Virus record (IMG/VR): IMGVR_UViG_2909309443_000005
Source: a virus
Taxonomy: Duplodnaviria > Heunggongvirae > Uroviricota > Caudoviricetes
Direction: 5' to 3' (one strand)
Length of the DNA stretch: 12,873 bases
A program made the translations under genes and the position numbers. Every line of letters starts with the position of its first letter. Within the stretch, counting starts at the first letter, position 1. Below the pieces are notes generated by a model. The model was given only the letters and a program-made list of their open reading frames with translations. It did not search any database and was not told the origin of the DNA. Of the stretch, positions 4,160-12,873 are shown in pieces.

Positions 4160-4468
4160 GTGACTCACATGACAAAAACAGTATCAACCAGTAAAAAACC
4201 CCGTAAACAGCATTCGCCTGAATTTCGCAGTGAAGCCCTGAAGCTTGCTGAACGCATCGGTGTTACTGCCGCAGCCCGTGAACTCAGCCTGTATGAATCA
4301 CAACTCTACAACTGGCGCAGTAAACAGCAAAATCAGCAGACGTCTTCTGAACGTGAACTGGAGATGTCTACCGAGATTGCACGTCTCAAACGCCAGCTGG
4401 CAGAACGGGATGAAGAGCTGGCTATCCTCCAAAAGGCCGCGACATACTTCGCGAAGCGCCTGAAATGA
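4160..4468 (+). CDS. insE: IS3 OrfA (transposase N-terminal / DNA-binding protein)
   Basis: 102-aa ORF starting [32 protein letters not shown]..., matching IS3 OrfA from memory; helix-turn-helix plus leucine-zipper-like C-terminus. Confidence 0.95.
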
Positions 4469-5331
4469 AGTATGTCTTTATTGAAAAACATCAGGCTGAG
4501 TTCAGCATCAAAGCAATGTGCCGCGTGCTCCGGGTGGCCCGCAGCGGCTGGTATACGTGGTGTCAGCGGCGGACAAGGATAAGCACGCGTCAGCAGTTCC
4601 GCCAACACTGCGACAGCGTTGTCCTCGCGGCTTTTACCCGGTCAAAACAGCGTTACGGTGCCCCACGCCTGACGGATGAACTGCGTGCTCAGGGTTACCC
4701 CTTTAACGTAAAAACCGTGGCGGCAAGCCTGCGCCGTCAGGGACTGAGGGCAAAGGCCTCCCGGAAGTTCAGCCCGGTCAGCTACCGCGCACACGGCCTG
4801 CCTGTGTCAGAAAATCTGTTGGAGCAGGATTTTTACGCCAGTGGCCCGAACCAGAAGTGGGCAGGAGACATCACGTACTTACGTACAGATGAAGGCTGGC
4901 TGTATCTGGCAGTGGTCATTGACCTGTGGTCACGTGCCGTTATTGGCTGGTCAATGTCGCCACGCATGACGGCGCAACTGGCCTGCGATGCCCTGCAGAT
5001 GGCGCTGTGGCGGCGTAAGAGGCCCCGGAACGTTATCGTTCACACGGACCGTGGAGGCCAGTACTGTTCAGCAGATTATCAGGCGCAACTGAAGCGGCAT
5101 AATCTGCGTGGAAGTATGAGCGCAAAAGGTTGCTGCTACGATAATGCCTGCGTGGAAAGCTTCTTTCATTCGCTGAAAGTGGAATGTATCCATGGAGAAC
5201 ACTTTATCAGCCGGGAAATAATGCGGGCAACGGTGTTTAATTATATCGAATGTGATTACAATCGGTGGCGGCGGCACAGTTGGTGTGGCGGCCTCAGTCC
5301 GGAACAATTTGAAAACAAGAACCTCGCTTAG
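4465..5331 (+). CDS. insF: IS3 OrfB (DDE transposase catalytic domain; expressed as OrfAB by -1 frameshift)
   Basis: 288-aa ORF overlapping the orfA stop in the -1 frame; contains DDE/rve-type residues (…WAGDITYL…[10 protein letters not shown]…SFFHSLKVE…). Confidence 0.95.
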
Positions 5332-5361
5332 GCCTGTGTCCATATTACGTGGGTAGGATCA

Positions 5362-5888
5362 TCCACCCTAAAACTATGACCAAGTATGAGATCGTCATCG
5401 TAACTACAATTGCCGTGAATATGTATGATTTGCTCGTCTGGAACGGCATAGATCTGCTGCAAGGTATTTGTATAATTAAATGAAAAATAGATGCTTTCTC
5501 TTGGTATGGGCGGGATGTATTGCTTAGGATTGTAAGCATCGGCTATGTTAATCCCTTTAACCCAATCAGCGAATTGCTCCTTCAAACGAGCTGACAGCAT
5601 TTGTGTGATTTTATTTACTTCATATTGGTAATCGTGATGATAAGCATCGCTCCAATCATCGGTATTGTATGAAGCCAAAAATATCTCACTGTTTTGAAGG
5701 ATAAGCTCATAATCAATTTCACCTAAAGCATTTTCTAACTCATTCCACTCGTCCCCAGCAGGAATGTATTCTTCTATCGCGTCATATAGATCTTGGTCAT
5801 TTTTTTCTACATACGACTTAAAGTGCTTGTATCCTGTTGGTAAGCCATGACGCATGTCAAATCCATTTCCTATTATGTAAAGCCTCAT
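5362..5888 (-). pseudogene. AbiH-like abortive-infection protein, N-terminal ~175 codons, 3'-truncated by IS3
   Basis: Minus-strand ORF from ATG 5888 (SD AAGGGA 6 nt upstream) encodes MRLYIIGNGFDMRHGLPTGYKHFKSY...SFNYTNTLQQIYAVPDEQIIHIHGNC. The N-terminal IIGNGFD..HGL motif and the FNYT...IHIHG motif are typical of the AbiH family as I recall it. The frame runs into the IS3 right end at 5361, and the last 11 codons of the six-frame ORF (5328-5361) are IS3-derived. Confidence 0.6.
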
Positions 5889-6202
5889 TGTTTTTCCCTT
5901 AGTCGAATTGTATAAAAATACTAACATGGCCTGCTCCACGTTGACTACTATCCCCTCCTTTGAGTAATGCCTTCATCAGATGTAACAACATTTGCGAGCT
6001 TCCACAGTTCGCTCAAAGCGGACTAGAAGGTTAGCTTGCGTCGGACTTGGCGTATTTAAAGAAGTGCTGGTGGAGACTGGTTGTTGTGTTCCATTTCTAC
6101 AGAACAAAATCACAGAAACTATACCCAATAGTTATATTGAATCAATGATGAGACAGCCTCATATTTATCAGGACTGGTGTACGTCCAATACAGGAGGTTG
6201 TC

Positions 6203-6328: not shown

Positions 6329-6369
6329 TGCTGCGGGTGCTTGAGGCTATCTGCCTCAGGCATGAACAC

Positions 6370-6460
6370 CAAAGGCAGATAGAGAAAAGCCCCAGTTAAC
6401 ATTACGCGTCCTGCAAGACGCTTAACATTAATCTGAGGCCAATTTCATGCTAGACACATG
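6370..6460 (-). ncRNA. Putative Sok-type antisense RNA region (approximate, inferred by analogy)
   Basis: In hok/sok loci Sok is transcribed antisense across the mok translation-initiation region. A weak candidate promoter on the minus strand (-35 TTGCCT at 6486-6491, -10 TAACCT at 6463-6468 in plus coordinates) is the only sequence support. Boundaries are guesses. Confidence 0.25.
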
Positions 6461-6659
6461 TAGGTTAGCCTCTTACGTGCCGAAAGGCAAGGAGAAGCAG
6501 GCTATGAAGCAGCAAAAGGCGATGTTAATCGCCCTGATCGTCATCTGTTTAACCGTCATAGTGACGGCACTGGTAACGAGGAAAGACCTCTGCGAGGTAC
6601 GAATCCGAACCGGCCAGACGGAGGTCGCTGTCTTCACAGCTTACGAACCTGAGGAGTAA
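6447..6659 (+). CDS. Mok (modulator of killing) reading frame, in-frame N-terminal extension of Hok
   Basis: ATG 6447 preceded by GAGG. The 70-aa product MLDTCRLASYVPKGKEKQA-MKQQKAM... has the same architecture as chromosomal MokC of K-12, as I recall it. Confidence 0.6.
   Translation: MLDTCRLASYVPKGKEKQAMKQQKAMLIALIVICLTVIVTALVTRKDLCEVRIRTGQTEVAVFTAYEPEE
6504..6659 (+). CDS. hokD: Hok/Gef-family type I toxin (HokD/RelF-like), 51 aa
   Basis: MKQQKAMLIALIVICLTVIVTALVTRKDLCEVRIRTGQTEVAVFTAYEPEE matches my recollection of E. coli HokD (RelF) and is close to HokC/Gef. SD AAGGAG lies 9 nt upstream of ATG 6504. A GC stem-loop (GGCGAGGG...CCCTCGCC, 6667-6688) follows the stop. Confidence 0.9.
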   Translation: MKQQKAMLIALIVICLTVIVTALVTRKDLCEVRIRTGQTEVAVFTAYEPEE

Positions 6660-7397: not shown

Positions 7398-8447
7398 GTG
7401 CGGGTATTACTTCGACCTGTTCTGGTACCGGAACTCGGGCTGGTGGTCGTTAAGCCGGGCCGTGAATCCATGCCGGTATTCCACAATACCCGGGTACTGG
7501 TGGAGCCGGAACCGAAAAGCATGCGTAATCTGCCGTCCGGGGTCGTTCCTGCCGTTCGCCAGCCGCTGGTGGAAGACAAAACATTGCTGCCGTTTTTCAG
7601 TAACGCACGGGTAATTCGTGCTGCTGGTGGTGCTGGTGCATTGTCTGACTGGCTGTTGCGCCATATTAAATCCTGCCAGTGGCCACACGGCGATTATCAT
7701 CACAGCGAAACCGTTATTCACCGATATGGTACCGGCGCAATGGTGTTGTGCTGGCACTGCGACAACCAGCTGCGTGACCAGACATCCGAATCACTCGAGC
7801 AACTTGCTCATCAAAACCTGTCAGCATGGATGATTGACGTCATCGGTCACGCAATAAGCGGTACGCAGGAGCGTGAATTATCTCTGGCTGAATTATCCTG
7901 GTGGGCGGTCCGCAATCAGCTGGCGGACGCGCTACCGGAAGCGGTATTACGTCGCTCGCTGGGATTACCAGCGGAAAAAATCTGCTCGGTGTACCGCGAA
8001 AGCGACATCGTACCGGGAGAGCAGACCGCCACCAGCATATTGAAACAGCGCACAAAAAATCTTGCACCGTTGCCTCACGCCCACCAGCAACAAAACCCAT
8101 CACAGGAAAAGACGGTGGTAAGCATCACCGTTGATCCAGAGTCTCCGGAATCTTTCATGAAGCTGCCTAAACGTCACCGGTGGGTTAAGGAGAAATACAC
8201 ACGCTGGGTTAAGACACAGCCGTGTGCTTGCTGCGGTATGCCAGCCGACGATCCGCATCATCTGATTGGTCACGGGCAGGGCGGAATGGGAACCAAAGCA
8301 CATGATCTCTTTGTTTTGCCTTTGTGCAGAAAGCATCACGACGAGTTGCATACGGATACCGTGGCATTTGAAGAGAAGTATGGCTCCCAACTGGAGCTGA
8401 TTTTTCGATTTATCGATCGCGCGCTGGCAATTGGTGTGCTGGCCTAA
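7398..8447 (+). CDS. ydfU: YdfU-like DUF968 protein with C-terminal HNH-like Cys/His motif
   Basis: 349-aa ORF with GTG start 4 nt after GGAGG and 1 nt after the rem stop (translational coupling). C-terminus carries CACCG...[10 protein letters not shown]...[11 protein letters not shown]. Matches K-12 YdfU as I recall it. Confidence 0.85.
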
Positions 8448-8464
8448 TTTTGTGGAGTAAGTTG

Positions 8465-8844
8465 ATGCGTGATATTCAGATGGTTCTTGAGCGTTGGGGG
8501 GCATGGGCGGCTAATAATCATGAAGATGTGACCTGGTCGTCCATTGCCGCCGGTTTTAAGGGATTAATTCCTTCAAAAGTAAGATCTCGTCCGCAATGCT
8601 GTGACGATGACGCGATGATCATTTGTGAATGTATGGCTCGCCTGAAAAAAAAAACAACAGCGATTTACATGATTTATTGGTGGACTATTATGTCGGCGGC
8701 ATGACTTTTATGGCGCTTGCACATAAGCATGGGCGATCTGATTGTTGGGTTGGCAGGATGCTCCAGAAAGCTGAGGGCGTAGTGGAGGGCATGCTGATGG
8801 TGTTGGATCTCCGATTGGAGATGGATGCTGATTGTTCGAAATAA
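8465..8844 (+). pseudogene. Late antiterminator Q (small QuuD/DLP12-type), disrupted by frameshift in an A10 homopolymer
   Basis: ATG 8465 (SD GGAG 8453-8456) encodes [22 protein letters not shown]...CECMARLKK up to the A10 run at 8645-8654. The frame then shifts so that a second frame (8653 onward) encodes [63 protein letters not shown]. Joined, the product is about 125 aa, the size of QuuD. With 8 or 11 As the gene would be in frame. Confidence 0.75.
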
Positions 8845-8856
8845 TTAAAGGAAAAG

Positions 8857-8892
8857 TTGCTGTCTGATTTTCATTAGTCTAACATTTTAAAT
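8857..8892 (+). promoter_or_regulatory. Candidate late promoter (PR'-like) / qut region downstream of Q
   Basis: Position is immediately 3' of Q and about 60-100 nt upstream of a strong terminator, as expected for PR'-tR'. Hexamers are weak (TTGCTG ... TAACAT, or TTGGAA ... TATCAT). Positional inference only. Confidence 0.25.
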
Positions 8893-8943
8893 GTTGGAAT
8901 CGCAACGTAGTTATTATCATATAACAGCTTGTTTCCTGATTTA

Positions 8944-8971
8944 GCCAGCCTCCCCAAAGGCTGGTTTTTTT
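8944..8971 (+). terminator. Intrinsic terminator (tR'-like): GCCAGCC-TCCCCAAA-GGCTGG(T) hairpin followed by T7
   Basis: Stem 8944-8950 / 8959-8965 and T-run 8965-8971, read directly from the sequence. Confidence 0.6.
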
Positions 8972-9189
8972 CTAATAAGTATCATTTCGGGTGGGGATTT
9001 TATTGTTTAACCCATAATAGTTCATTGACATTGAATCCCAACTTTTGAGCGGTACGCACATAGTCTGCTTTTACATTATCTGGAATAGTTTGGGTCCTTG
9101 CCAGAATCCATAGGTATTCTCTGTTCGGACCACTGGTGATGCTGCCAACTTACTGATTTAGTGTATGATGGTGTTTTTGAGGTGCTCCA

Positions 9190-9465
9190 GTGGCTTCTGT
9201 TTCTATCAGCTGTCCCTCCTGTTCAGCTACTGACGGGGTGGTGCGTAACGGCAAAAGCACCGCCGGACATCAGCGCTATCTCTGCTCTCACTGCCGTAAA
9301 ACATGGCAACTGCAGTTCACTTACACCGCTTCTCAACCCGGTACGCACCAGAAAATCATTGATATGGCCATGAATGGCGTTGGATGCCGGGCAACTGCCC
9401 GCATTATGGGCGTTGGCCTCAACACGGTTTTACGTCACTTAAAAAACTCAGGCCGCAGTCGGTAA
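9190..9465 (+). CDS. insA: IS1 InsA
   Basis: 91-aa [48 protein letters not shown]..., matching IS1 InsA from memory. Confidence 0.95.
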
Positions 9466-9887
9466 CCTCGCGCATACAACCGGGCAGTGATGTGATTGTC
9501 TGCGCGGAAATGGACGAACAGTGGGGCTACGTCGGTGCTAAATCACGTCAGCGCTGGCTGTTTTACGCGTATGACAGGATACGGAGGACAGTTGTGGCGC
9601 ACGTTTTCGGTGAACGCACTCTGGCCACACTGGCGCGTCTTCTGAGCCTGCTGTCGGCCTTTGAGGTCGTGGTATGGATGACGGATGGCTGGCCGCTGTA
9701 TGAATCCCGCCTGAAGGGAAAGCTGCACGTTATCAGCAAGCGTTACACTCAGCGCATTGAGCGACATAATCTGAATCTGAGACAACATCTGGCAAGGCTG
9801 GGACGGAAGTTACTGTCGTTCTCAAAATCGGTGGAGCTGCATGACAAGGTCATCGGGCATTATCTGAACATAAAACACTATCAGTAA
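9384..9887 (+). CDS. insB: IS1 InsB' frame (transposase InsAB' made by -1 frameshift from insA)
   Basis: 167-aa ORF in the -1 frame relative to insA, overlapping it around the A6C motif. Confidence 0.9.
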
Positions 9888-9902
9888 GTTGGAGTCACTA
9901 CC

Positions 9903-10252
9903 ATTACTTGCATCATCATTTTTCCTGTTGGACTGGTCAGGTCAATGCCACCCAATGCTAAGCAATGCACTCTGATACCTGTTTCGGTCAGTTGTTCCAC
10001 TGTTTTCCTGATATCCATTGCATTACAACCAAGGCGATCCAGTTTTGTCACAATCAATTGATCACCACATTTCAGGCGAGCAAGCAACCGGTTAAAACCA
10101 GGACGCTCACTGGTTGCTGCTGAGCCGCTAATGTGTTCTTCGATTATTTGCTGAGGTTTGATTTTAAAACCTGCACTTTCGATTTCCCGGCGTTGATTTT
10201 CGGTGGTCTGATCCAGCGTTGATATCCGACAGTAAGCAAAAATTCGAGACAT
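9903..10252 (-). pseudogene. pinQ: Pin-type serine recombinase (DNA invertase), 5' ~116 codons, 3'-truncated by IS1
   Basis: Minus-strand ORF from ATG 10252 encodes [31 protein letters not shown]...[45 protein letters not shown], a serine-recombinase catalytic domain resembling PinQ/PinR as I recall them. The frame runs into the IS1 right end, and the last codons of the six-frame ORF are IS1-derived. Confidence 0.8.
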
Positions 10253-11631: not shown

Positions 11632-12873
11632 ATGAAATATTTTTTTCCTGAATCATCAACGGCAATGGTGTTAATTCTGGCATTGGGAACCTACGGTGCA
11701 GGTTATGTGGCGCGTATTGTCGGAGCATTTATTTTCGGCAAAATGGGCGACAGAATAGGGCGTAAAAAAGTGCTCTTTATTACCATCACCATGATGGGGA
11801 TCTGTACCACCTTAATTGGTGTGTTACCGACCTATGCACAGATTGGTGTTTTTGCACCCATCTTGCTGGTGACGTTGCGTATTATTCAGGGGTTGGGTGC
11901 AGGTGCGGAAATTTCCGGTGCCGGTACGATGCTGGCGGAATATGCGCCAAAAGGTAAGCGCGGAATTATCTCCTCATTTGTGGCTATGGGAACTAACTGC
12001 GGAACCTTGAGCGCAACGGCAATCTGGGCCTTTATGTTCTTCATTCTCAGTAAAGAGGAACTGCTGGCGTGGGGATGGCGTATACCGTTCCTGGCGAGCG
12101 TTGTCGTGATGGTCTTTGCTATCTGGTTGCGTATGAATCTGAAAGAAAGCCCGGTCTTTGAGAAGGTTAACGACAGTAACCAACCGACAGCAAAACCTGC
12201 ACCTGCTGGTAGCATGTTCCAGAGCAAATCCTTCTGGCTGGCAACAGGGCTGCGTTTTGGTCAGGCGGGTAACTCCGGGTTAATTCAGACTTTCCTTGCA
12301 GGCTATTTAGTGCAGACGTTATTGTTTAACAAAGCAATTCCAACAGATGCATTGATGATCAGTTCGATTCTCGGCTTTATGACCATTCCGTTCCTTGGTT
12401 GGTTATCCGATAAAATTGGTCGCCGGATCCCGTATATTATTATGAATACCTCCGCGATTGTGCTGGCATGGCCAATGCTTTCTATCATTGTAGATAAAAG
12501 CTATGCCCCGAGCACCATTATGGTTGCACTGATTGTGATTCATAACTGTGCGGTGCTGGGATTATTTGCTCTGGAAAACATTACCATGGCAGAAATGTTC
12601 GGCTGTAAAAACCGCTTTACCCGGATGGCTATTTCTAAAGAAATTGGTGGTCTTATCGCTTCCGGTTTTGGTCCTATCCTGGCGGGTATTTTCTGCACCA
12701 TGACGGAATCCTGGTATCCGATCGCCATTATGATCATGGCATATTCAGTGATTGGTTTAATCTCTGCGCTGAAAATGCCAGAGGTGAAAGACCGTGATTT
12801 AAGTGCGCTGGAAGACGCTGCGGAAGATCAACCGCGTGTTGTAAGAGCTGCGCAACCTTCCAGAAGTCTGTAA
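11632..12873 (+). CDS. ydfJ: MFS transporter, metabolite:H+ symporter family (YdfJ); 5' end disrupted by a T7-run frameshift
   Basis: 413-aa ORF with multiple predicted transmembrane segments and MFS motifs (GKMGDRIGRKK; RIIQGLGAGAE). Upstream, in another frame, ATG 11589 encodes MDFQLYSLGAALVFHEIFF, the expected first transmembrane helix; it would fuse in frame if the T-run at 11640-11646 were 6 rather than 7 nt, giving a 427-aa protein. Confidence 0.85.
   Translation: MKYFFPESSTAMVLILALGTYGAGYVARIVGAFIFGKMGDRIGRKKVLFITITMMGICTTLIGVLPTYAQIGVFAPILLVTLRIIQGLGAGAEISGAGTMLAEYAPKGKRGIISSFVAMGTNCGTLSATAIWAFMFFILSKEELLAWGWRIPFLASVVVMVFAIWLRMNLKESPVFEKVNDSNQPTAKPAPAGSMFQSKSFWLATGLRFGQAGNSGLIQTFLAGYLVQTLLFNKAIPTDALMISSILGFMTIPFLGWLSDKIGRRIPYIIMNTSAIVLAWPMLSIIVDKSYAPSTIMVALIVIHNCAVLGLFALENITMAEMFGCKNRFTRMAISKEIGGLIASGFGPILAGIFCTMTESWYPIAIMIMAYSVIGLISALKMPEVKDRDLSALEDAAEDQPRVVRAAQPSRSL

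Follow-up and report, generated by a model that had tools for sequence, protein, structure and literature searches.

The run of 10 adenines that interrupts an antiterminator Q gene in a prophage remnant of Escherichia coli is very probably an ancestral A8 tract that has grown by two bases, and not a programmed feature. The window, by which we mean the whole stretch of 12 873 nucleotides analysed here, belongs to E. coli CP024266.1 (GCA_002741515.1), an ETEC chromosome of 4.88 Mb. The ancestral A8 tract is made up by the codons AAA AAA AAC (Lys-Lys-Asn), at a place where the protein varies, and it would have been expanded either by a homopolymer-length error of long-read assembly or by a private slipped-strand replication mutation. 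As written, the A10 gene would give a 79-aa product devoid of the C-terminal half. A minority leak to a 126-aa Q could arise from RNA polymerase adding one A or from a -1 ribosomal slip on A_AAA_AAA; such leaks, at levels that we infer, would be generic by-products and not a selected mechanism. Moreover, the remnant Q has no late operon to act on, IS1 having deleted the late region. A leaky rescue of Q is physically plausible, but it would be generic and without a target.

An earlier note on this DNA had left the choice between a pseudogene, a slippage-rescued gene and a sequencing error. The answer lies within these three options, but slippage rescue as a selected feature is not supported.

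Identity and frames of the interrupted Q gene

The homopolymer comprises exactly 10 adenines at positions 8645-8654, flanked by ATGGCTCGCCTG upstream and CAACAGCGAT downstream. It is the sole A/T run of 8 or more bases in the window, and the number of A/T runs of at least 10 expected from the base composition of the window is ∼0.05. On the plus strand, the N-terminal Q ORF (8465-8704) encodes 79 aa and matches the Pfam family PF06530 (Phage_antitermQ) over positions 1-66 (E = 5.8e-32). Its biological start is the ATG at 8465 (MRDIQ...), as opposed to the TTG at 8450 in the mechanical ORF list, and it is annotated as a gene in CP024266.1. Only residues 1-62 of this ORF are authentic Q sequence, residues 63-79 forming an out-of-frame tail. 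The C-terminal half (8653-8844, plus strand) reads NNSDLHDLL...MDADCSK and then a stop codon; it matches PF06530 over positions 62-118 (E = 2.8e-13) and lies in the -1 (or +2) frame relative to the upstream Q frame. The mechanical ORF that contains it begins with the ATG at 8629. The A10 homopolymer is the frameshift site, intact relatives having A8.

When the gene was re-translated with tract lengths from 5 to 13, a single ORF was obtained only with A5, A8 and A11, giving proteins of 124, 125 and 126 aa, respectively. The A8-repaired Q matches all 118 positions of PF06530 (1-118, E = 1.4e-50), and the two encoded pieces abut at the tract in the coordinates of the family (1-66 and 62-118). Furthermore, the protein aligns with the structures of phage 21 Q, 6p18 and 6jnx (E = 4.5e-9), residues 8-90 of the query corresponding to residues 20-103 of Q21, an alignment that spans residues 61-63. 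Since the Pfam pieces abut and the Q21 alignment runs through the break, the two halves belong to one gene, and the possibility of two unrelated genes is ruled out by the full-length Pfam match and the alignment across the tract. In the sequence as deposited, however, no uninterrupted ORF covers the whole PF06530 fold, the frame shifting after residue 62. With the C-terminal half of the fold missing, the 79-aa product would presumably be inactive.

To judge from these sequence matches, the gene is an antiterminator of the Q21/QuuD family, the closest named gene being quuD of the K-12 prophage DLP12. Like QuuD and phage 21 Q, the repaired window Q is PF06530 from end to end and aligns to Q21 (6P18, 6JNX) across the break; like them it follows ydfU and precedes a terminator-like hairpin. 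QuuD has 127 aa and the repaired window Q 125 aa, and their N-terminal halves are near-identical. What sets the window gene apart is that a homopolymer change of +2 splits its ORF and that IS1 has deleted the late operon.

Several statements of the earlier note thus hold. It had recognized a Q gene, which the PF06530 match bears out, and had placed the split at an A-run of 10 bases, the length found here. It had also calculated that 8 or 11 As would restore one ORF of ∼125 aa, in agreement with the 125 aa (A8) and 126 aa (A11) obtained. It was right that the C-terminal portion continues in another frame, but this portion, given as two-thirds of the protein, is in fact half of it (63 of 125 aa). 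The note had further allowed that Q homologs might show the halves to be unrelated, which the Pfam and Q21 alignments exclude.

Prophage context and loss of the late region

The region is a Qin-type cryptic prophage that lies within ydfJ and has decayed heavily. The remnant contains, in order, an integrase gene, an excisionase gene, a gene for a 744-aa exonuclease, an IS3 within an AbiH gene, a hok/sok module, ydfU and Q, followed by a terminator-like hairpin, a lipocalin remnant, IS1, a truncated pin, ydfK, ynfT and a ydfJ remnant. ydfU (DUF968; 7398-8447, plus strand), which lies directly upstream of Q in Qin-type prophages, is intact. Approximately 100 nt downstream of Q, a consensus scan detected a terminator-like hairpin (8943-8966) followed by a T-run (8943-8975 in all, plus strand), and its position relative to Q suggests that it could be the promoter-proximal late terminator at which Q acts. 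Scanning for a late promoter near Q by consensus gave weak promoter-like matches alone.

Beyond the hairpin, mapping of the annotation of the sibling genomes E1316 and TW10598 to the window placed a 135-nt 3' remnant of a lipocalin (blc-like) gene at 9000-9134 on the minus strand, cut by IS1. The IS1 copy itself (9135-9902, plus strand), delimited by its ORFs, the sibling annotation and its end sequence, contains insA (9190-9465) and the insB' frame (9384-9887), and is annotated in the siblings as 'IS1 family transposase, programmed frameshift'. A pin-type recombinase remnant devoid of its C-terminus (9902-10252, minus strand) is directly joined to it. The relative ECCWS199 is less decayed: downstream of its Q come the lipocalin gene, ybgA, an HTH gene, the holin gene essQ, a gene for lysozyme, rzpQ and further genes. 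Homology to this intact locus ends at position 9135 of the window, which is the start of IS1. The whole late region has therefore been replaced or deleted by IS1, leaving no late genes for Q. The earlier note had seen the late-gene switch of the remnant at stake; with everything between the lipocalin gene and the pin remnant removed by IS1 (9135-9902), that question is moot regardless of the state of Q.

At 4160-5331 and 5328-5939, an IS3 (orfA/orfB) lies within the AbiH abortive-infection gene, of which an ORF of ∼200 aa is left; the intact AbiH gene of ECCWS199 has 909 nt. In E1316 (NZ_CM180512.1), the IS3 beside AbiH has a GST gene fragment and ansP on its other flank, and the rspAB-integrase-exonuclease segment is found on the other strand at a distance of ∼135 kb. 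Compared with the genome of the window, this layout suggests an inversion mediated by IS3. A hok/sok-type toxin-antitoxin module occupies positions 6335-6659, with an Rfam sok match of 119.9 bits (6335-6509) and hokD at ∼6447-6659.

Tract length among relatives

The earlier note had proposed to compare the length of the A-run in related prophages, and this comparison was carried out with queries of two sizes. A 461-nt query across Q matched 3556 complete E. coli genomes, and its best matches were 99.6% identical, 2 nt shorter, and annotated as an intact 'antiterminator Q family protein'. Short queries of 87 to 90 nt, differing in tract length alone, located the haplotype in 429 complete E. coli genomes, ∼370 of which have exactly A8, one A7 (2017.20.01CC) and one A9 (Combat13F7, where the gene is annotated 'frameshifted'). 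With these same short queries, A10 was found in none of the 429 genomes. All 40 IMG/VR copies of the haplotype have A8. The junction from ydfU through Q and IS1 to pin' is identical in 15 ETEC sibling genomes, with matched lengths 3 or 4 nt below that of the window, and alignment of two of these siblings, E1316 and TW10598, gave A8 in each.

A look-up of exact products extended the comparison to contigs, in which A6 was found in 2, A7 in 77, A8 in at least 1000, A9 in 27 and A10 in 2. In-frame A11 or A5 alleles were considered as a possible sign of selection for the frame, and this look-up returned no contig for either of them, nor for A13. The single cluster member of 126 aa, P0044, was considered as an A11 allele and proved not to be an A11 variant. 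The spectrum of alleles is centred on A8 and falls steeply on both sides with no in-frame alternative, the pattern produced by homopolymer slippage without selection and/or by noise in sequencing. Taken together, these comparisons show A8 to be the ancestral in-frame state and A10 an allele essentially private to the CP024266.1 assembly.

The second A10 contig is a Logan contig of 1533 nt from SRR16612233, with the tract at 285-294. Its haplotype, which differs by 2 SNPs in 775 nt, is nearer to that of Combat13F7 (A9), and its lipocalin gene is intact. Because of this different haplotype and intact lipocalin gene, it represents an independent occurrence of A10, which means that A10 alleles can arise, or be called, elsewhere. 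TW10598 (NZ_CP035846.1) carries a Q frameshift of its own, a change from G6 to G5 at the equivalent of window position 8496, and its gene is annotated 'frameshifted'; this could be either a further long-read error or a separate hit that struck Q, in the same clone, at a different homopolymer.

Conservation of the tract and recoding signals

The Lys-Lys-Asn codons were compared in 80 IMG/VR loci that encode a Q protein with 97-100% identity: 51 have AAA AAG AAC (AAAAAGAAC) and the other 29 AAA AAA AAC. K-12 quuD also carries AAAAAGAAC at the tract, and other members of the Q family have KN or NR at this position. A conserved slippery tract was thus ruled out by the codons of the close homologs, of quuD and of the wider family.

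For programmed transcriptional slippage, a run of at least nine A or T at the junction of two ORFs is present, namely A10 at 8645-8654. Neither the length of this run nor the two-ORF layout is conserved, however, the single-ORF A8 form being the one found in most of the 429 complete genomes and in all IMG/VR copies of the haplotype. For -1 ribosomal frameshifting, the heptamer A_AAA_AAA at 8647-8653 (plus strand), of the X_XXY_YYZ type, is in the right register for a shift into the C-terminal frame, which is a property of the sequence only; the predicted product of this shift is the 126-aa Q in a KKK variant. The layout is not conserved in homologs, and a downstream stimulator was ruled out: the segment 8655-8740 folds at -20.6 kcal/mol (z = -1.19), no better than shuffled sequences, 27 of 200 of which fold as well. 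Upstream of the A10 run, no AGGAGG-like element is visible in the sequence. An Rfam scan of the window detected sok alone and nothing at the Q locus. We conclude that A10 is an ordinary homopolymer length change with no programmed recoding signal. The earlier note had envisaged a rescue by slippage; there is no sign here that this would be a selected feature, neither the tract nor the two-ORF layout being conserved.

Sites at which slippage or frameshifting is programmed provide a useful comparison. Like the A6C site of IS1 insAB', IS3 orfAB, Shigella mxiE and spa13 and the A9 run of Thermus dnaX, the Q tract is an A-rich slippery motif at a -1 frame overlap. In contrast to the Q tract, those sites keep their length and layout from one homolog to another. 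The window itself offers an example, since its IS1, located ∼800 nt downstream, keeps the A6C site (9441-9447, TTAAAAAAC) in the overlap of insA and insB'.

Assembly error or real mutation

CP024266.1 was compared with its siblings over 20.2 kb, from which it differs solely by the change from A8 to A10, a change from T6 to T7 and five SNPs in IS1. No private substitution was found outside IS1 in ∼19 kb of CP024266.1 aligned with the siblings, and the left 5.6 kb of the compared stretch is 100.0% identical, without gaps, to at least 10 genomes. The T7 run (11640-11646, plus strand) is located at the start of the ydfJ remnant, 3 kb from A10, and constitutes a second private homopolymer insertion, all relatives having T6. 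The segment is present in 4781 complete E. coli genomes, none of which has the T7 allele. Because of the insertion, the codons upstream of the run, which in the T6 sibling are CAT GAA ATA, no longer share the ydfJ frame that follows. As for IS1, the five SNPs lie within 43 nt (9396-9438) and separate the window copy from the IS1 inserted at the same site in E1316 and TW10598; this cluster could reflect either gene conversion between IS1 variants or polishing by reads of other IS1 copies.

A later paper (PMC8085198) speaks of the neighbouring accessions CP024265.1 and CP024272.1 as ETEC genomes 'PacBio sequenced by Smith et al.', and from the proximity of the accession numbers CP024266 was probably sequenced by PacBio only. 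NZ_CP024266 is missing from the RefSeq complete-genome set, in which its sisters NZ_CP024232, NZ_CP024260 and NZ_CP024275 are present. The platform and this absence bear on the question only indirectly. A private change accompanied by another private homopolymer indel and by no substitutions, as would be expected of an artefact, is what A10 and T7 present, and two such insertions with zero private substitutions fit the residual consensus errors of long-read data. As in long-read-only assemblies with indel errors, the private change affects the longest A/T run of the region, with a second private +1 in a T6 run; unlike in those assemblies, the change in Q is +2 and not plus or minus one. The second insertion at a distance of 3 kb, together with the probable PacBio-only origin, leans towards an error.

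Consensus errors normally add or remove a single base, and a +2 change is unusual among them, so that a real mutation stays in play. Moreover, A7 and A9 alleles are present in many assemblies from several sources, which indicates that real mutations do occur at the Q tract. The +2 size, the independent A10 contig and this spread of A7 and A9 alleles across many assemblies were all counted against an error. On balance, we somewhat favour an assembly error as the origin of A10, which may well be an artefact, and hold a real private mutation to be a serious possibility.

Alternative readings of the A10 run

If the A10 run is real, a meaningful fraction of the expression of the gene could be full-length 126-aa Q, with activity kept but reduced, produced by +1 transcriptional slippage at the run and/or by -1 ribosomal frameshifting or sliding on A_AAA_AAA. 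The geometry is suitable, the C-terminal frame being reached by exactly one extra A or a -1 shift, with the heptamer at 8647-8653 in register, and the literature lends plausibility to both routes. When transcription errs at A/T runs in E. coli, it mostly inserts a single base, and such errors rise exponentially in frequency with the length of the run (PMC5574713), and -1 suppression that is not programmed can reach 1-10% in E. coli frameshift mutants (PMC10861913). In Shigella, slippage at spa13 yields 25-30% of extended product (PMC5009743), and disrupted ORFs with slippery runs were argued in 2005 not to be true pseudogenes but 'pseudo-pseudogenes' (PMC1088944). The window Q resembles the latter, described by Baranov et al. 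(2005, PMC1088944) for A9/T9 runs, in that it is frameshifted within nine or more consecutive As, that other E. coli strains have an intact single-ORF ortholog, and that an mRNA with one A more would be back in frame; it differs in that its allele is known from sequence alone, belongs essentially to a single assembly and may be an error of that assembly. We nevertheless consider such a rescue very unlikely. The run and the split layout are not conserved, A8 or the interrupted AAAAAGAAC being the rule, the A10 allele occurs on just two contigs, and the heptamer has no downstream stimulatory structure. A transcriptome-wide study found no transcription error that restored a reading frame, which also counts against this reading (PMC5574713). 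Finally, the late region has been deleted by IS1, so nothing is evident for which a rescue of Q would be selected.

Two further readings seem highly improbable to us. The A-run of Q might be a phase-variable contingency tract, that is, a reversible ON/OFF switch of the late genes whose length changes at high frequency in populations, and variants from A6 to A10 do exist in natural isolates of otherwise identical haplotype, close relatives included. However, frequent ON/OFF length variants are not what close relatives display: OFF alleles amount to ∼2 of the 429 complete genomes (about 0.5%) and to 0 of the 40 IMG/VR copies, the in-frame A5 and A11 are absent from the exact-product look-up, and most homologs break the tract with a G. 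A tract of eight As is also short for a classical contingency locus. We give equally little credence to a real A10 allele at which transcriptional or ribosomal slippage would supply a low level of full-length Q, able to modify RNA polymerase at a surviving late promoter and terminator (∼8850-8975) and so to tune neighbouring host genes. If this were true, read-through by Q would cross IS1, run antisense to the pin remnant, ydfK and ynfT and enter the ydfJ remnant, and the switch of a 'dead' prophage would be tuned by the length of the tract.

Significance

The preferred reading, a non-programmed +2 expansion of A8, involves a kind of event that is already known, as are the mechanisms by which the gene might leak. 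Its biological weight is small, and its practical value is that of an annotation and quality flag. For the remnant Q we advise the label 'frameshifted at a homopolymer; check reads', and, to judge from the paired private insertions in an A-run and a T-run, further homopolymer errors may be present in CP024266.1. If A10 is real and leaky, the Q gene of this prophage would be one more 'pseudo-pseudogene' of a known class, whose target operon is already gone.
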